From the IMG/VR virus record IMGVR_UViG_2675903425_000022: 9,881 bases of DNA; one strand, 5' to 3'. The position numbers and the translations under genes are program-made. The DNA is from a virus. Taxonomy: Duplodnaviria > Heunggongvirae > Uroviricota > Caudoviricetes. A model generated the notes under the pieces. It had not been told where the DNA came from. It made no database searches and worked only from the letters and a program-made list of their open reading frames with translations. Of the stretch, positions 2,673 through 9,881 are shown piece after piece; the first letter of the stretch is position 1, and every line of letters starts with the position of its first letter.

Positions 2673-3128
2673 ATGTATTTTTTGAAAAGCCTTTATCAGG
2701 CTCATGTATTAAATGTTGCAGCAACAAACCGCTGGTGTAACAGCCCCGAAATGCTCCCGGATTACAGAGCCTGGCTGCGCGCCGAAACATACCTTCGTCT
2801 CGACATATTGATTAGCGAACTTCAAAAAGAGACTGCATCCATTCATAACCTTCAGGGTATCGACGCTGTTCGCATTCTGGTATCGCGCCATAGTGCTCTC
2901 TCAATAATTGAAGTGCGTCATCTCTCTTTTTCTGAACTGATTTTCTTGCTTCAACCAGCTCTGGAATCAGCGAATATCCCGCCGGAAGTGATCCAATACC
3001 CACCTCATGTTGACGAGCAGTTACAAGATGTGCCATACAACCAGCGTGCTGGATTGACTCCCTGCTCAGAGGCTGAATGGGATCACTCTCTGCTGAAGAA
3101 ATACCAAGATTTGTATAATCCTCAATAA
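2673..3128 (+). CDS. Hypothetical protein (151 aa) antisense to the minus-strand operon; candidate independently expressed moron
   Basis: ATG at 2673 is preceded by a perfect AGGAGG (2660-2665, 7-nt spacer) and a perfect TATAAT (2629-2634) about 38 nt upstream. No family recognised from the translation (MYFLKSLYQAHVLNVAATNRW...). It overlaps the minus-strand ORF 2812..3321; only one of the two may be real. Confidence 0.3.
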   Translation: MYFLKSLYQAHVLNVAATNRWCNSPEMLPDYRAWLRAETYLRLDILISELQKETASIHNLQGIDAVRILVSRHSALSIIEVRHLSFSELIFLLQPALESANIPPEVIQYPPHVDEQLQDVPYNQRAGLTPCSEAEWDHSLLKKYQDLYNPQ

Positions 3129-3321
3129 GCCCGGCACACGCTTCTGCATCAGCCAGCTTTATTCTGGTTTCCTTGCGCTGTTCTCTGGCTGACAAACGCC
3201 AGAGCAGCGCATTAGCTTTATGTATCAACCACTCTGCCAGCTCCACATCAGATAAACCGCCACGCCAGATGTGCGGACTGTTTTCGTAAACGCTCAGTGT
3301 CAATTTTTTGTCATTACTCAT
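2812..3321 (-). CDS. Hypothetical protein (169 aa) between the CII-like gene and the initiator
   Basis: ORF in the same orientation as the operon, with ATG at 3321 starting 13 nt after the stop of the YdaT-like gene. Weak Shine-Dalgarno (TGGGTAA); an alternative GTG start at 3372 would overlap the upstream gene. The translation is charged and helical-looking (MSNDKKLTLSVYENSPHIWRGGLSDVELAEWLIHKANALLWRL...). No family recognised. Confidence 0.4.
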   Translation of the reverse strand: MSNDKKLTLSVYENSPHIWRGGLSDVELAEWLIHKANALLWRLSAREQRKETRIKLADAEACAGLIEDYTNLGISSAESDPIQPLSRESIQHAGCMAHLVTARQHEVGIGSLPAGYSLIPELVEARKSVQKKRDDALQLLREHYGAIPECEQRRYPEGYEWMQSLFEVR

Positions 3322-3334
3322 ATTTATTACCCAA

Positions 3335-3825
3335 TTAATGCACAGCCAGAGTGTTTCCTGCCGGGCCACCACGATTCATCTGATCGAACAGAACGATCGC
3401 TGATGCAACGAAATCATCAATATCTTTCACCAGCCGTTCCTTCGTCTCTACCAACTCCCGAAAATAAGCGGAACTGTGGCTGCGCATTCGGGCCACCAGC
3501 GGAGGCGGCATCGCTTTTTCGATCGCTGGTAACAACGCCTGAATTTTTTTAACCGCATCAGGAGTGTCTTTCTCCACCCAGCGGAAAATTTTCTGAGTAT
3601 TGCGAGCCATGGCTTCCGGATGGCTGTCGTCATACAGTTCCGGGAACGTCATTCCCAGCTCGAAATACGCTTNNNNNNNNNNNNNNNNNNNNNNNNNNNN
3701 NNNNNNNNNNNNNNNNNNNNNNGCTCGAAATACGCTTTGGTAATTTTCGCAGCCGGTACTTTTTCGCCGTCCGGATGCGCCCAGGCATTCATCGCCATGC
3801 GGATGTGTTCATGCTTGATTTTCAT
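3335..3825 (-). CDS. ydaT: YdaT-like (CII-analogous) regulatory protein; ORF interrupted by a 50-N gap
   Basis: ATG at 3825 (top CAT 3823-3825) with GGAG 7 nt upstream. N-terminus is MKIKHEHIRMAMNAWAHPDGEKVPAAKITKAYFE up to the gap, and the translation resumes after it as LGMTFPELYDDSHPEAM...GNTLAVH. Removing the gap and one copy of the duplicated 15-mer gives a continuous 426-nt ORF (141 aa), the size recalled for YdaT. Position after the Cro-like gene fits. Confidence 0.7.
3673..3722. other. Run of 50 N (scaffold gap), flanked by identical 15-mers
   Basis: gctcgaaatacgctt occurs at 3658-3672 and again at 3723-3737, immediately on either side of the N run. Confidence 0.95.
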
Positions 3826-4081
3826 GAATCAACTCCGGCGCATTTGATGTGTTAACCTTACATCCAACAGGTAAACCGTCGGTTGGGTTAGGATAAATAT
3901 CTGGGCGGATTTCATGCGGGGTAACTTCCCACTTCATTAGTTGGCATAACGGAATTACCTGCTTTGGGGGAACGCCAAAGCTAAACCATTGCCAAACAGT
4001 CTGTTGAGCGACCCCCATATAACGACCTATTTCAGCCTGAGTGTATTTCTGCCTAATTTTTTCGCGAGTGCTATCTAGCAT
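3809..4081 (-). CDS. ydaS: Cro-like HTH regulator (YdaS-like), first gene of the minus-strand early operon
   Basis: 90-aa ORF with a classic HTH (TQAEIGRYMGVAQQTVWQW). ATG at 4081 with GGAGG 6 nt upstream. It is divergent from the plus-strand repressor-like gene across a 108-bp region holding a perfect palindrome. The 3' end overlaps the YdaT-like start by 17 nt. Confidence 0.75.
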   Translation of the reverse strand: MLDSTREKIRQKYTQAEIGRYMGVAQQTVWQWFSFGVPPKQVIPLCQLMKWEVTPHEIRPDIYPNPTDGLPVGCKVNTSNAPELIHENQA

Positions 4082-4114
4082 TTTGCCCTCCTCTAAAAAC
4101 TATAAGCAAAGCCT

Positions 4115-4153
4115 ACAATAAAAAACTGTATGCAATCAACAGTTTTTTATTGT
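4115..4153. promoter_or_regulatory. Putative operator: perfect 15-bp inverted repeat ACAATAAAAAACTGT / ACAGTTTTTTATTGT with 9-bp spacer, in the divergent promoter region
   Basis: Read directly. Additional ACAG/CTGT half-site-like motifs follow at 4162-4177. Location between the Cro-like and repressor-like genes. Confidence 0.6.
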
Positions 4154-4189
4154 GATGCTTTTAACAGTATTTACCTGTAAAATTGAATA

Positions 4190-4591
4190 ATGATGAGCGC
4201 CCTAGAAGTATCTATGTACAGAATCAGCAAGCTTCTTCAGGAAACTGGATGGAGCCAGGCTGAGCTTGCCCGTAGAATTGGTGTGACACAACAAACTGTT
4301 CAACAATGGGTCAGCGGTAAGGCTACACCTAAAGCCTCAAGTTTGGATAAACTGGTTGAGGTTTCAGGGCATCCATTGCATTGGTTTTTATTGCCTCCTG
4401 AAGAGTGTGAGCAAATTTTCACCCCTGACACGATGAAAATTGGTCCTCGCCAACGCGAACTGCTCCAAGCTTTTAGTGCGTTTCCTGAGGAAGACCAAGA
4501 AAAAATGCTTCAAGAAATCAAAGACAAGAAAAAATCAATGGAAGAAACCATTGCTAGGTGGCTGGCGGCACAAAAAAGCCGCCGGGCGTGA
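4190..4591 (+). CDS. paaR2: HTH (XRE-family) transcriptional regulator, PaaR2-like; occupies the CI-repressor position
   Basis: 133-aa ORF with HTH (SQAELARRIGVTQQTVQQWVSGK) and no LexA-type peptidase domain. It is first in a three-gene operon with a 63-aa antitoxin and a ParE toxin, matching the paaR2-paaA2-parE2 arrangement recalled from E. coli O157 prophage CP-933P. There is no Shine-Dalgarno before ATG 4190, so it may be leaderless or start at ATG 4214. Confidence 0.75.
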   Translation: MMSALEVSMYRISKLLQETGWSQAELARRIGVTQQTVQQWVSGKATPKASSLDKLVEVSGHPLHWFLLPPEECEQIFTPDTMKIGPRQRELLQAFSAFPEEDQEKMLQEIKDKKKSMEETIARWLAAQKSRRA

Positions 4592-4618
4592 CCACAGTAC
4601 AAGAAGAGGAGTTATGCC

Positions 4619-4810
4619 ATGGGTACAGCCCTTTCTCCGATAGTTTCAGAATTCGAAACTACCGAACAAGAAAACAGTTACAACGAATGGTTGCGCACTA
4701 AAGTAACGTCAAGCCTTGCAGACACTCGCCCCGCAATTCCACATGACGAGGTAATGGCTGAAATGGAAAATCTTATTGCTCAAATTGCTGTAACTAACAA
4801 GAGCGAGTAA
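4619..4810 (+). CDS. paaA2: Small antitoxin of the ParE module (PaaA2-like)
   Basis: 63-aa acidic ORF (MGTALSPIVSEFETTEQENSYNEWLRTKV...). GAGGA 8 nt upstream of the ATG; its stop overlaps the toxin start (TAATG). Size and position match PaaA2 as recalled. Confidence 0.7.
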   Translation: MGTALSPIVSEFETTEQENSYNEWLRTKVTSSLADTRPAIPHDEVMAEMENLIAQIAVTNKSE

Positions 4811-5097
4811 TGTTACCCATTTTATGGCTACCGTCTGCTCGCGATGATTTGCGCCAGATCATAACTTACATCGCCAAGGAGAACCCACCGGCAGCACGTA
4901 GACTAAAAATACGCATTGAAACATCGGTATTACCTCTATCTGAGCATCCGTACTTATATCCACCAAGCGAACGGGTTTCTGGATTGAGAGAGATCGTGAC
5001 CCACCCTAACTACATAATCCTGTACAGAGTAGCTGCTTCAAGCATTGAGATTGTAAGCGTGACACATTCTCGGCGACAATTTCCCTTCTCTATCTGA
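4810..5097 (+). CDS. parE2: ParE/RelE-family toxin (ParE2-like)
   Basis: 95-aa ORF translationally coupled to the antitoxin. Sequence ...RQIITYIAKENPPAARRLKIRIETSVLPLSEHPYLYPPSERVSGLREIVTHPNYIILYRV... is typical of ParE/RelE-fold toxins. Confidence 0.8.
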   Translation: MLPILWLPSARDDLRQIITYIAKENPPAARRLKIRIETSVLPLSEHPYLYPPSERVSGLREIVTHPNYIILYRVAASSIEIVSVTHSRRQFPFSI

Positions 5098-5115
5098 GTT
5101 GAACAATTTTCATAC

Positions 5116-5138
5116 TCCCTCTTTCGAGGGATTTTTTT
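5116..5138 (+). terminator. Intrinsic terminator after the toxin gene
   Basis: Stem TCCCTC (5116-5121), loop TTTC, stem GAGGGA (5126-5131), followed by TTTTTTT (5132-5138). Confidence 0.65.
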
Positions 5139-5148
5139 GCCCAAAACA

Positions 5149-5188
5149 ACAATTAAAAACTGTTGACACAAAAACAGTTTTTTATTGT
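5149..5188. promoter_or_regulatory. Second copy of the operator palindrome (one mismatch) with a consensus -35 TTGACA in its spacer; putative promoter/operator of the dicB-type operon
   Basis: ACAATTAAAAACTGT (5149-5163), spacer TGACACAAAA, ACAGTTTTTTATTGT (5174-5188). TTGACA at 5163-5168. The right half is identical to the right half of the 4115-4153 palindrome. No clean -10 at 17-bp spacing. Confidence 0.5.
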
Positions 5189-5374
5189 AGATTACATACA
5201 CCAACCACCCACCCCGCCCCACAGAACGCCGGGCAATACTTCGAGTTACCAAGCAGTGGTCAGGGGGTAAGTAGCCAGCCCGAGGCGTATGAACATGACG
5301 GCAGGGTTCAACTTTAATAACTATGCAGCAGGTTTTTGTTCCGCTACCCGGCGTTAAGGGGAAATGAGGTCAAC

Positions 5375-5530
5375 ATGGATACTATCGATCTTGGCAACAA
5401 CGAATCTCTGGTGTACGGCGTGTTTCCCAACCAGGACGGTACATTCACCGCGATGACGTATACCAAAAGCAAAACGTTTAAAACCGAAAATGGTGCCCGT
5501 CGCTGGCTGGAAAGAAACTCAGGTGAGTGA
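5375..5530 (+). CDS. YdfA/YdaF-like small protein (51 aa, DUF1391-type)
   Basis: ATG at 5375 with GAGG 7 nt upstream; MDTIDLGNNESLVYGVFPNQDGTFTAMTYTKSKTFKTENGARRWLERNSGE. It is the first gene after the second operator, as ydfA is in the Qin dicB operon (recalled). Confidence 0.7.
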   Translation: MDTIDLGNNESLVYGVFPNQDGTFTAMTYTKSKTFKTENGARRWLERNSGE

Positions 5531-5531
5531 T

Positions 5532-5660
5532 ATGGATTTCGACACAATCATGGAAAAGGCTTACGAAGAATACTTCGAAGGCCTTGCCGAAGGCGAGGAA
5601 GCTCTCAGCTTCAGTGAGTTTAAACAGGCGCTTTCCAGTTCGGCAAAATCTAACGACTAA
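5532..5660 (+). CDS. YdfB-like small protein (42 aa); absent from the supplied ORF track because of its size
   Basis: ATG at 5532 lies 1 nt after the upstream stop, with AGGTGAG upstream. Translation MDFDTIMEKAYEEYFEGLAEGEEALSFSEFKQALSSSAKSND ends at TAA 5658-5660. Confidence 0.6.
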   Translation: MDFDTIMEKAYEEYFEGLAEGEEALSFSEFKQALSSSAKSND

Positions 5661-6768: not shown

Positions 6769-6821
6769 ATTCTGGTGACATTTGGCGGTATCAGTTTTAC
6801 TCCGTAACTGCTCTGCCGCCC
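6769..6821 (+). ncRNA. dicF: DicF small RNA homolog (53 nt)
   Basis: ATTCTGGTGACATTTGGCGGTATCAGTTTTACTCCGTAACTGCTCTGCCGCCC differs at 3 of 53 positions from the K-12 DicF sequence as I recall it (TTTCTGGTGACGTTTGGCGGTATCAGTTTTACTCCGTGACTGCTCTGCCGCCC). It is followed by TTTTTT and located just upstream of dicB, as in Qin. Confidence 0.8.
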
Positions 6822-7476: not shown

Positions 7477-9881
7477 ATGAGTAAAATCTTTATTTGCGCT
7501 GCTATTCCTGACGAACAGGCCATAAAAGAAGATAGCGCTGTTGCGGTGGCCACTGCCATTGAAGCCGGTGATGAGCGTCGCGCACGCGCAAAATTTCACT
7601 GGCAATTTCTGGAGCAATTCCCGGCAGCTCAGGACTGCGCTTATAAATTTATTGTCTGCGAGGATAAACCCGGCATACCCCGCCCTGCCCTCGATTCCTG
7701 GGATACCGAATATATGCAGGAAAACCGCTGGGATGAGGAGTCAGCTTCCTTTGTACCGGTCGAACCAGAATCCGATCCGATGAACGTCAATTTTGACAAG
7801 CTGTCCCCTGAAGTACAGAACGCAGTCCTGGTTAAATTCGACACATGCGAAAACATCACCGTTGATATGGTGATTAGCGCACAGGAATTACTACAGGAAG
7901 ACATGGCAACATTCGGCGGACATATCGTTGAAGCGTTGATGAAAATGCCAGAAGTTAACGCCATGTATCCTGAACTTAAACTGCATGCCATCGGGTGGGT
8001 TAAGCATAAATGTGAGCCTGGCGCTAAATGGCCTGAAATTCAGGCAGAGATGCGCATCTGGAAAAAACGTCGCGAAGGTGAACGCAAGGAAACCGGAAAA
8101 TACACGTCTGTTGTTGATCTCACCCGCGCCAGAGTCAACCAACAGAACACTGAAAACGCTGCTGAAAAAACCGGGGCTGTCACTGTTGCCATTCGCCGCG
8201 AATACAAACAGACATGGAAAACACTCGACAATGAACTGGCCTGCGCCCTCTGGCCCGGTGATGTGGATGCAGGAAACATTGACGGTACCATCCATCGCTG
8301 GGCGACAAATGAGGTTATCGACAAGGATCGCGAAGACTGGAAGCGTATCTCAGCATCAATGCGCAAACAGCCCGAAGCACTTGGCTATGACCGTCAGACT
8401 ATTTTTGGCCTTGTTCGCGAACGTCCGATCGATATTCACAAAGATCCCGTTGCACTGAACAAATATATCAGTGAATACCTGACGACAAAGGGCGTGTTTG
8501 AACATGAAGAAACAGACCAGAGCTCTACTGATGCTCTCCAGCCGTCAGCAGCACAAACTGCTCCAGTGGAGACGGCAGAATCCGATACTCAAAAAAATGA
8601 AATCCTGGTGGAAGCTGAACCATCTGTAGAGCGTGAAGGACCATTTTATTTCGTCTTTACCGATAAGGGCGGGGAAAAATACGGCAGGGCAAACAAACTT
8701 TCTGGTCTGGACAAGGCGCTGGCTGCCGGCGGTACCGAAATCTCAAAAGAAGAATATTTTGCCCGAAAAAATGGCACATACACGGGCTTACCGCAAAATG
8801 TGGATACCGCTGAAGATTCCGAACAATCAGAGCCGGTAAAAGTTACCGCTGACGAAGTAAACAAAATTATGCAGGCAGCCAATATCAGCCAGCCTGACGC
8901 CGATAAATTGCTTGCTGCATCACGTGGTGAATTTGTTGAAGGGATTAGCGACCCGAATGATCCGAAATGGGTGAAAGGGATCCAGAGTCGCGACGCTGAG
9001 GACCAGAATCAGCCCAACGTGAAACAAAATGAGCCAGAAGCGGAACAAAACAGCCCGGATACGCAACAAAACGGGCCAGAAGAACAACAACCAGAACCAG
9101 CAGTGCAACAGGAACTGGAAAAAGTTTGCACCGCATGCGGTCAGACCGGTGGCGGCAACTGTCCTGACTGTGGTGCGGTGATGGGGAACGCAACCTACCT
9201 GGAAACATTCGATGAAGAGAATCAGGCTGAAGCTCAGAAAAATGATCCGGAGGAAATGGAAGGCACTGAACATCTGCACAAGGAGAACACTGGCAGCGAT
9301 CAGTATCACGCCAGCGATAATAAAACTGGCGAAACAGCAAATCCCTTAATTAAAGTGAACGGTCATCATGAAATCTCATCCACCAGCAGGTTGTGGCACC
9401 ATCTGATGATTGACCTTGAAACAATGGGAAAAAATCCTGATGCGCCAATAAACTCTATAGCCGGTAAGTTTTTTGATCCGGCAACCGGAGAGATGGGGCC
9501 AGAATTCAGCAAAACTATCGATCTGGAAACCGCAGGTGGGGTCATCGATCGGGACACCATTAAGTGGTGGCTGAAACAGTCACGCGAAGCACAATCCTCC
9601 ATTCTGACCGATGAAATCACGTTGGATGATGCACTGCTGCAATTCCGGGAATTTATCGACGAAAACTCCGGTGAATTTTTTGTTCAGGTCTGGGGTAACG
9701 GTGCAACTTTCGACAACGTGATTTTACGCCGTTCATATGAACGGCAGGGGATCCCCTGCCCGTGGCGTTACACCAATGATCGCGATGTAAGAACGATGGT
9801 TGCTCTGGGACTGGTGATGGATTTCGACGCAAGAACGACTATTCCATTCGAAGGTGAACGCCATAACGCCCTGCACGATGC
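7477..9881 (+). CDS. recE: RecE-like (exodeoxyribonuclease VIII-like) large multidomain protein, 5' part only; includes a Cys4 zinc ribbon and DEDDh 3'-5' exonuclease motifs; continues past window end
   Basis: Frame 1 is open from ATG 7477 (TGAGGT upstream) to the window end, 801 codons, verified row by row. It contains KLLAASRGEFVEGISDPNDPKWVKGIQ, which I recall from RecE; CTACGQTGGGNCPDC (9127-9171); and DnaQ-like motifs DLET (9412-9423), GNGATFD (9694-9714) and HNALHD (9862-9879). The ORF track omits it because it has no stop within the window. Confidence 0.65.
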   Translation, partial: MSKIFICAAIPDEQAIKEDSAVAVATAIEAGDERRARAKFHWQFLEQFPAAQDCAYKFIVCEDKPGIPRPALDSWDTEYMQENRWDEESASFVPVEPESDPMNVNFDKLSPEVQNAVLVKFDTCENITVDMVISAQELLQEDMATFGGHIVEALMKMPEVNAMYPELKLHAIGWVKHKCEPGAKWPEIQAEMRIWKKRREGERKETGKYTSVVDLTRARVNQQNTENAAEKTGAVTVAIRREYKQTWKTLDNELACALWPGDVDAGNIDGTIHRWATNEVIDKDREDWKRISASMRKQPEALGYDRQTIFGLVRERPIDIHKDPVALNKYISEYLTTKGVFEHEETDQSSTDALQPSAAQTAPVETAESDTQKNEILVEAEPSVEREGPFYFVFTDKGGEKYGRANKLSGLDKALAAGGTEISKEEYFARKNGTYTGLPQNVDTAEDSEQSEPVKVTADEVNKIMQAANISQPDADKLLAASRGEFVEGISDPNDPKWVKGIQSRDAEDQNQPNVKQNEPEAEQNSPDTQQNGPEEQQPEPAVQQELEKVCTACGQTGGGNCPDCGAVMGNATYLETFDEENQAEAQKNDPEEMEGTEHLHKENTGSDQYHASDNKTGETANPLIKVNGHHEISSTSRLWHHLMIDLETMGKNPDAPINSIAGKFFDPATGEMGPEFSKTIDLETAGGVIDRDTIKWWLKQSREAQSSILTDEITLDDALLQFREFIDENSGEFFVQVWGNGATFDNVILRRSYERQGIPCPWRYTNDRDVRTMVALGLVMDFDARTTIPFEGERHNALHD

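Follow-up and report, generated by a model that had tools for sequence, protein, structure and literature searches.

Paired 15-bp operators overlapping the predicted early-left promoter of a CP-933M-type prophage of Escherichia coli O157:H7

Introduction

Why should an operator-like inverted repeat stand directly behind the terminator of a toxin-antitoxin operon, and which genes would it serve there? The question is raised by a stretch of 9,881 nucleotides (hereafter the window, to which all positions refer) in which a palindrome located between a Cro-like and a repressor-like gene recurs on the far side of parE. Here we analyse both copies by comparison with related prophages, with heteroimmune prophages and with phage 434, and set the result beside the published systems of CP-933P, Qin and lambda.

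Results

The locus and its genes

Positions 3800-5600 of the window are 100% identical to positions 1,254,284-1,256,084 of the chromosome of E. coli O157:H7 EDL933, and many other O157:H7 genomes carry the same sequence. In E. coli O157:H7 the window forms part of a lambda-like prophage that is defective. In the RefSeq annotation of EDL933, a replication gene, a YdaT-family protein and a Cro-like 'transcriptional regulator' share one strand, and the other strand has an HTH protein, an antitoxin named RelB, a ParE toxin, ydfA, ydfB, dicB, an exonuclease and an integrase. Pfam searches of the window returned the YdaS, HTH_3/CI-type, PaaA2, ParE and DUF1391 families, and these assignments agree with the neighbouring genes named by the original prediction.

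The Cro-like regulator, of the YdaS family (PF15943; recognition helix AQQTVWQW), is encoded on the minus strand at 3809-4081. The other genes considered here are on the plus strand, starting with that of a PaaR-type, CI-like repressor of 133 aa (4190-4591; HTH_3; recognition helix TQQTVQQW), to which Pfam gives HTH families only, at residues ~10-70, and no LexA/peptidase S24 domain. The genes of the PaaA antitoxin (4619-4810; PF21217) and of the ParE toxin (4810-5097; PF05016) come next; they are cargo co-transcribed with the repressor and situated between its gene and the left operator (OL). An intrinsic terminator at 5116-5140 (plus strand), made of a 6-bp stem with four GC pairs followed by a T-run, ends the paaR-paaA-parE operon directly 3′ of parE. 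Further on come ydfA (DUF1391; 5375-5530), the first gene of the early-left (PL) operon, and, upstream of dicB in the same operon, the DicF small RNA (6770-6821; Rfam 76.9 bits, E = 4.7e-16).

The experimental reference for such a locus is the study of the paaR2-paaA2-parE2 locus of CP-933P in E. coli O157:H7 by Jurenas et al. 2021 (PMC8630535), in which a homologue is stated for CP-933M. PaaR2 starts with MQKKEIRRL (read from primers) and the repressor of the window with MMSALEVSMY, and the operator consensus of CP-933P, GTTTAGTAA, does not occur in the regulatory regions of the window. The different N-terminus and the missing CP-933P operators mean that the window holds another locus, not the one studied in CP-933P. 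We take it to be the CP-933M locus, a name that comes from the literature statement of a homologue and not from an annotated prophage label.

The repeat is real and has the same register at both operators

At the right operator (OR), a left arm ACAATAAAAAACTGT at 4115-4129 and a right arm ACAGTTTTTTATTGT at 4139-4153 form a perfect 15+15 complement around a 9-bp spacer, ATGCAATCA. In the OL copy, ACAATTAAAAACTGT (5149-5163) and ACAGTTTTTTATTGT (5174-5188) stand 10 bp apart, separated by TGACACAAAA, and a single mismatch falls in the left arm. A repeat search recovered both palindromes and the cross-matches between them. When up to three mismatches were allowed, the 15-mer matched the four arm positions and no others in the 9.9-kb window; shuffled sequences gave a mean of 0.58 matches, and four matches were reached in 1 of 200 shuffles. 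The repeat is real and non-random. Direct reading and the repeat search thus bear out the original description of a half-site repeated about 1 kb apart, perfect at 4115-4153 and with one mismatch and a spacer 1 bp longer at 5149-5188; equally, the second copy does follow right after the ParE operon terminator. The TTGACA that had been placed in the OL spacer is present at 5163-5168, but lies mostly rather than wholly inside it, its first T being the last base of the left arm.

That shared T gives the register of the whole element. On the plus strand OL reads ACAATTAAAAACTGT-TGACA-CAAAA-ACAGTTTTTTATTGT-AGATT, so that the last T of a first 15-bp operator (OL2, ACAATTAAAAACTGT, 5149-5163) is the first base of the PL -35 hexamer TTGACA (5163-5168, plus strand), while a second operator (OL1, ACAGTTTTTTATTGT, 5174-5188) occupies the space between -35 and -10 and shares its final T with the start of the -10 hexamer TAGATT (5188-5193, plus strand). 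At the sequence level, OL/PL therefore overlaps a sigma-70-type -35/-10 pair directed away from the repressor gene and into ydfA...DicF...dicB, the operon that PL is predicted to drive. The spacer between the hexamers is of 19 bp in the window, of 18 bp in the commonest allele and of 17 bp in two more distant relatives (the loci L171 and L178, see below). A 19-bp spacer is suboptimal, and it is the reason why PL was not listed by a consensus promoter scan, which admits spacers of 16-18 bp only; the promoter was assigned by comparison with relatives and with phage 434. Two operator sites are visible at OL, against three in lambda, 434 and CP-933P.

The likeness between OR and OL is inverted in orientation and takes in TTGA and TAG as well as the palindrome. 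The minus strand of OR reads ACAATAAAAAACTGT-TGATT-GCAT-ACAGTTTTTTATTGT-AGGCT and leads on to the ribosome-binding site and start of the Cro-like gene. This extended likeness between the minus strand of OR and the plus strand of OL suggests that PR and PL are mirror copies of one promoter-operator design. Their registers are equal: in each, the closing T of site one opens the -35 (TTGATT in PR, TTGACA in PL), and site two takes up the spacer, its closing T opening the -10 (TAGGCT in PR, TAGATT in PL). The operator at 4115-4129 is accordingly the one within the spacer of the leftward PR, which points toward the Cro-like gene and whose putative -10, TAGGCT on the minus strand, would lie at 4110-4115. 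The operator at 4139-4153 has the PR -35 (4134-4139, minus strand) on one side and, on the other, the weak -35 region that belongs to the repressor promoter.

A candidate third OR operator, ACAGTATTTACCTGT, occupies 4164-4178, has one mismatch to the operator motif, and lies 25 bp further along than the operator at 4139-4153. Its last T starts TAAAAT (4178-4183), the -10 of the repressor promoter. This hexamer ends 7 nt before the ATG at 4190, and hence the repressor mRNA would be leaderless, as has been demonstrated for paaR2 mRNA (PMC8630535). The relatives L169 and L170 have this third site too, and ACAAGGGATACCTGT stands in its position in L171. In close relatives its conservation is uninformative, the whole stretch to its right being invariant.

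Operators and hexamers are constant amid variable flanks

Viral-contig scans for the 15-mer and for relatives of the repressor yielded about 50 prophage contigs of this immunity type, with 24 distinct PL contexts. Both 15-mers, the TTGAC of the -35 and TAGATT were constant among these contexts, the -35 reading TTGAC(A/G) in 24 of 24. The variable parts were the other bases of the spacer, the 8 nt that separate the terminator T-run from the first site and the 7 nt downstream of the -10. L178, in which TAAATT follows the site, falls outside the pattern that defined the 24 contexts. The OL2 sequence is unchanged in PaaR-type relatives with at least 97% repressor identity. Similarly, the OR arms are invariant in relatives, and the four spacer bases outside TTGAT are variable. 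Constancy of this kind amid variable flanks is what one would expect if proteins contact the sites and the hexamers belong to promoters.

In its commonest allele, ACAATTAAAAACTGT-TGACACAAA-ACAGTTTTTAATTGT, OL is a perfect palindrome whose arms are 9 bp apart. With respect to this allele, the window has one A more in the spacer and, in the right site (OL1), T in place of A; an intermediate allele with the additional A alone was found. A 70-bp OL segment was matched in 478 complete E. coli genomes, 243 of them at 99% identity or more. In a spread sample of these matches, all rows with 100% identity came from O157:H7 or unserotyped strains, and the 69-bp allele was seen in O121, O103:H2 and other strains. 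Judging from this distribution, the OL with a 10-bp spacer and one mismatch is a derived allele, specific to the O157:H7 lineage. The full palindrome had no match in a scan of one genome per species. No isolated phage with this immunity region was found in the phage collection, where the flanks alone gave matches; phage Tritos, for instance, matches in both flanks and carries a heteroimmune replacement between them.

Two 15-bp operators rather than one long palindrome

A first alternative takes the 39-40 bp inverted repeat itself as the functional unit, bound by one assembly on distant half-sites or extruded as a cruciform. The symmetry of the element is what recommends it: the arms of OR match perfectly over 15+15 bp, a mirrored A/T change in both arms makes the commonest OL allele perfect as well, and the single strand folds well, with DNA z-scores of -4.5 and -7.1. 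Each arm is, however, pseudo-symmetric by itself, in the form ACAAT-AAAAA-ACTGT. With one mismatch allowed, the motif ACARTN5AYTGT recovers the four arms and, as a fifth site, ACAGTATTTACCTGT at 4164-4178, that is, a third site of the 15-bp form 25 bp further along at OR. The sole other match in the window, at 9591 with one mismatch, is at chance level; shuffled sequences gave a mean of 1.1 matches and none reached six.

Relatives separate the two readings. In OkiPb01712 (L128) and L169, whose repressor is 91% identical, the left OL site is ACAGTTATTTATTGT, flipped, and the pair becomes a direct repeat: the long palindrome is lost and the 15-mers are kept. With the repressor 80% identical, the OL of L170 is ACAGTATTTTATTGT-TGACATCTG-ACAGTTATTTACTGT-AGATT; at 68%, that of L171 is ACAAGAAATTACTGT-TGACGATA-ACAATAAAGACTTGT-AGATT; and at 48%, that of L178 is ACAATAAAATACTGT-TGACATAA-ACAATTATTTATTGT, then TAAATT. 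The recognition helix TQQTVQQW is kept in all these repressors (L128/L169, L170, L171 and L178). The sites of the last three loci differ internally, and what is kept across these distant relatives is not the long dyad but the ACA...TGT ends of each 15-mer, its AT-rich centre and its register relative to the -35 and -10. Start-to-start spacing varies too, from 23 to 25 bp, and the homologous repressor of 434 binds 14-bp sites as a dimer (PMC1636474). We therefore consider a long-palindrome unit improbable, and the '39-bp palindrome' makes better sense as a pair of 15-bp operators.

A 434-type recognition helix in the repressor and in the Cro-like protein

Which protein binds had been called not evident from the letters; this was too pessimistic, as both regulators have a 434-type helix that fits ACA(A/G) half-sites. 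The closest solved structure to the HTH domain of the repressor is the phage 434 repressor (E = 3e-5), the PaaR segment QAELARRIGVTQQTVQQW corresponding to QAELAQKVGTTQQSIEQL in 434. Both share two consecutive glutamines and a third one five residues on (TQQTVQQW in the repressor, TQQSIEQL in 434). The Cro-like protein has the segment GVAQQTVWQW, and its tblastn cross-matches with the repressor span exactly that segment. In 434 co-crystals, glutamines of the recognition helix make base contacts and read ACA. By analogy with 434 cI and Cro, the PaaR-type repressor and the Cro-like protein probably both bind the OR and OL sites.

The 434 operators and pL were taken from the annotated record OL657226.1: OR1 ACAAACTTTCTTGT, OR2 ACAATGTATCTTGT, OR3 ACAGTTTTTCTTGT, OL3 ACAATGGAGTTTGT, OL2 ACAATATTTATTGT and OL1 ACAATCTTCCTTGT. 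In these operators the outer 4+4 bases are conserved and the outer 5+5 are contacted (PMC1636474). The likeness to the window is extensive: 434 operators (ACAA/ACAG...TTGT) and the window sites have ACAA/ACAG outer bases and an AT-rich centre in common; OL1 of the window, ACAGTTTTTTATTGT, closely resembles 434 OR3, ACAGTTTTTCTTGT; the register of 434 pL (OL2, T-TTACA, ACAT, OL1, T-AATTT) is that of PL; and a cargo gene, hex, lies between cI and OL in 434 as paaA-parE does here. The differences are as clear. The window sites are of 15 bp (ACA[A/G]T-N5-A[C/T]TGT), one central base pair more than the 14 bp of 434 (ACAA-N6-TTGT), which makes the 434 recognition code an analogy and not a proof. Unlike in 434, moreover, PR has no site downstream of its -10 and the operon downstream of PL lacks an N gene and nutL. 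The 133-aa repressor is without a LexA-like cleavage domain, whereas the cI gene of 434 is of 633 nt, and the two proteins share ~32% identity, in the HTH domain only. The element resembles the 434 family in how it would work, and is not a member of the 434 immunity group.

The left operator is not tied to the toxin module

The original prediction further proposed that the three-gene toxin module, together with its terminator, had been inserted between an ancestral repressor position and its leftward operon, duplicating or 'recreating' the operator. The two copies are indeed very alike, and in complete E. coli genomes this type of repressor goes almost always with paaA-parE: OR and the repressor gene were found in 510 genomes and the whole of 3800-5600 in 509, leaving essentially none with the repressor and without the module. 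The repressor is, however, itself one of the members of the 'three-gene module', and more distant relatives with the same helix, drawn from viral contigs, point elsewhere. After their repressor gene L170 has an unrelated 120-aa ORF and a terminator, L171 has other ORFs and L178 has nothing, but all three have the same OL/PL design after the repressor gene or the cargo. In addition, the contig L079 carries an internal deletion that removed most of paaA-parE, and keeps OL.

Heteroimmune prophages tell the same. A query with 4900-5400 gave matches in 3590 E. coli genomes, most of them starting at query positions 297-313, that is, at window 5196-5212, just past the -10. An alignment of eight loci likewise showed homology to begin at ~5196-5212, with unrelated sequence upstream, and the homology with phage Tritos begins there too. 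The boundary of the immunity cassette falls at ~5196-5212, where the 5′ leader of the early-left operon (5196-5374, plus strand), common to heteroimmune prophages, begins. The predicted RNA structure of this conserved ydfA leader was no more stable than that of shuffled sequences (z = +0.82, in a nearly invariant alignment). In the heteroimmune relatives compared (Rac, Qin, MLI121, O104:H4, PF9285 and L174), each locus has its own OR-type operators around a -35 (TTGACA, TTGACT, TTGACC or TTTACA), upstream of the same conserved leader. Rac has TAGGCATAGCCTA-TTGACA-...TAGGCATTACCTA-TAGT, with a 24-bp segment that is identical, inverted, to its own racR-ydaS intergenic region; MLI121 has GGTAAC-N4-GTTACC after TTGACT; and Qin has TGTTAGTCATGGCTAA after TTGACC. 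In the L174 group, where PaaA-ParE is 79-87% identical and the repressor has the helix AQQSVQKW, operators of sequence AACTTTAnAAGTG surround TTGACA and match the group's own OR. Operators change along with the repressor while the flanks stay homologous, as in a mosaic immunity cassette.

No toxin module separates the repressor gene from PL in Qin, Rac, MLI121, O104:H4 and PF9285, in which PL, with its own operators, follows the repressor. The cI-cargo-OL layout is furthermore shared by phage 434 and by CP-933P (for the latter, PMC8630535). The expectation that alignment with related prophages would find the second copy only where the toxin module is does not hold: OL/PL is also present in relatives with other cargo or none, so that the second copy is not tied to the toxin module and nothing need have been 'recreated'. 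We regard an origin of the operator by toxin-module insertion as very unlikely.

An RNA hairpin or a toxin-antitoxin operator explains the site poorly

If transcribed, the palindrome might act as an RNA hairpin, either as a back-up terminator or as a stabiliser of parE read-through transcripts. The plus strand does fold into a 15-bp hairpin just after the real terminator, and 5100-5200 gives z = -5.8, a stretch that includes the terminator. But the stem is AT-rich and is followed by AGAUUAC, with no U-run; at OR the palindrome is flanked by divergent promoters; the operators that heteroimmune relatives carry in this position form no hairpin; and L128 loses the hairpin potential and keeps the sites. 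A role as RNA is thus highly implausible. That OL should be the autoregulatory operator of the toxin-antitoxin pair, bound by a PaaA-ParE complex as in classical type II systems, can practically be dismissed, given that the site, although close to parE, lies downstream of parE and of its terminator and not at the operon promoter, that PaaA matches only the PaaA2 'stability determinant' family PF21217 and has no DNA-binding domain, and that in the paralogous system a separate regulator, PaaR2, does the task (PMC8630535).

On these comparisons, we conclude with good confidence that 5149-5193 is the OL/PL of a CP-933M-type lambdoid prophage, whose PaaR-type repressor would control both PL and OR.

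Discussion

The arrangement described here has well-studied counterparts. In lambda, cI is co-transcribed with rexA-rexB, sited between cI and OL, and OL and OR share operators and are looped together by repressor octamers. Lambda differs from the window in its proteins, in its 17-bp operators, in having three sites per side and in the distance between OL and OR (2.4 kb against 1.03 kb). CP-933P is closer, with the same gene order as the window (YdaT, YdaS/Cro-like, OR, PaaR, PaaA, ParE, PL) and with PL operators that resemble the PR operators, as they do here. In CP-933P the promoter PL933P, with OL1-3, lies next to parE2, and PaaR2 and YdaS each repress this promoter ~100-fold; PaaR2 forms octamers, as lambda CI does (PMC8630535). 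The repressor mRNA of CP-933P is leaderless, and the -10 in the window is placed for the same arrangement. The N-terminal DNA-binding region of PaaR2 and its operators (GTTTAGTAA) differ from those of the window, as does the number of OL sites, three against two. The ORFs downstream of PL933P were assigned no function (PMC8630535), whereas ydfA...DicF...dicB lies downstream in the window.

For that operon the precedent is Qin of E. coli K-12, in which dicBp occupies the same place, upstream of a homologous ydfA leader and of ydfA-ydfB-...-dicF-dicB, and in which the operators flanking its TTGACC -35 are related to those of the dicA-dicC intergenic region. In Qin, dicBp is induced 22-fold when dicA is deleted and is the sole promoter found for ydfA...dicF...dicB, and DicA and DicC form a bistable switch (PMC10448788); the Oc operator is likewise bound by DicA, which activates dicA itself (PMC3441716). 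Qin differs from the window in that no toxin-antitoxin pair separates dicA from dicBp and in its operator, TGTTAGTCATAACTAACA; DicA, with the recognition helix SHVSVSQW, is 24% identical to the window repressor. With the promoter overlap, the invariant sites, the heteroimmune parallels and the precedents of CP-933P and Qin, it is very probable, in line with the original proposal, that one regulator set serves the immunity region and the dicB-type operon.

We infer the functional reading, binding and repression at OL/PL, from comparison and precedent. Dimers of the PaaR-type repressor would occupy OL1 and OL2, probably cooperatively, the centres being 24-25 bp apart. This occupancy would shut out RNA polymerase and keep the ydfA-ydfB-...-DicF-dicB operon silent. 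On the matching OR sites the same repressor would hold down the Cro-like/YdaT operon and, at the site beside its own weak -35, probably activate its own leaderless transcript. In the opposite state of the switch, the Cro-like YdaS-family protein, with nearly the same helix, would probably bind the same sites. Since PaaR2 forms octamers, a loop of 1,034 bp between OR and OL may also be possible, by analogy.

No new regulatory principle emerges from this locus, as its layout is textbook for lambda and 434 and has been shown experimentally for CP-933P and Qin. A search of the open-access literature found no description of this 434-like operator, and what is mildly new here is that a 434-like site occurs in a 15-bp variant and that the O157:H7 lineage has a derived allele with a 10-bp spacer. 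It is a speculative and rather doubtful idea that this allele, with a 25-bp phasing and a 19-bp spacer in place of 24 and 18, could alter cooperativity or PL strength and, together with the 15-bp geometry, could define a 434-like mode of binding with an extra central base pair; if true, it would change how often the ydfA-DicF-dicB operon fires in EHEC.

The comparison places paaA-parE inside an immunity cassette of the lambda/434 style, between the repressor gene and OL, a placement in keeping with what has been proposed for CP-933P, namely a stabilising effect of the toxin module on the immunity region. In addition, one of the four prophage operons that encode DicF and DicB in E. coli O157:H7 now has a predicted promoter with concrete operator sequences.

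Start of the repressor gene

The -10 element of the repressor promoter (TAAAAT, 4178-4183) ends 7 nt 5′ of the repressor ATG at 4190, and no Shine-Dalgarno sequence is found upstream of this ATG (4164-4190). This arrangement suggests a leaderless repressor mRNA. Three relatives with the recognition helix TQQTVQQW (L128, L170 and L171) retain both the -10 and its distance to the ATG, while the six intervening bases vary. A candidate OR3-like site (4164-4178) overlaps the same -10.

On the other side of the Cro-like gene, where its end overlaps the start of ydaT, lies TTGATTTTCATGAATCAA (3815-3832). It matches without a single mismatch TTGATT-N6-AATCAA, reported as the recognition sequence of the CP-933P YdaT (PMC9986795); shuffled sequences yield a mean of 0.83 matches even when up to two mismatches are allowed. 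This candidate YdaT site may correspond to PRE, the promoter from which CII switches on repressor synthesis during establishment.

ydfA leader and DicF

The leader of about 180 nt that lies 5′ of ydfA (5196-5374) is approximately 90-97% conserved in 3590 E. coli genomes, and this conservation spans heteroimmune prophages, K-12 Rac among them. The predicted fold of the leader is not more stable than those of its shuffled versions (z = +0.82), and the aligned leaders vary too little for covariation. Further along the operon, between a 129-aa ORF and dicB, a full-length DicF RNA is recognized at 6770-6821 (76.9 bits); O157:H7 carries several copies of DicF, of which this is one.

Differences from EDL933

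In the window, ydaT is interrupted by 49 consecutive N (3674-3722), with a sequence of about 16 bp, gctcgaaatacgctt, present once on each side of the run, whereas ydaT of the O157:H7 strain EDL933 is 426 nt long and has no insertion. The run with its flanking duplication appears to stem from masking or assembly and not to be biological. In the replication-gene region (750-2705, compared with 3016-4860 of locus L001) the window has a 400-aa ORF where EDL933 has a gene of 1092 nt. Identity to EDL933 thus holds over 3800-5600 but does not extend across the whole window.

Variation of the toxin pair and its repressor

A natural internal deletion of paaA-parE is found in one compared locus, L079 (IMGVR_UViG_2675903352_000015, 7991-8114), where about 22 codons of paaA are joined to about 22 codons of parE. 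The deletion leaves the repressor gene and both operator regions, OR and OL, intact, and the distance from OR to OL is 683 bp, as against about 1035 bp without the deletion.

A third PaaR/PaaA/ParE immunity type is present in the viral contigs L174-L177 (2384-3600). Its toxin pair is 79-87% identical to PaaA-ParE of the window and its repressor 66% identical, with the helix AQQSVQKW, and AACTTTAnAAGTG-like operators stand at both OR and PL. The paaA-parE toxin pair seems to travel with differing repressor specificities.
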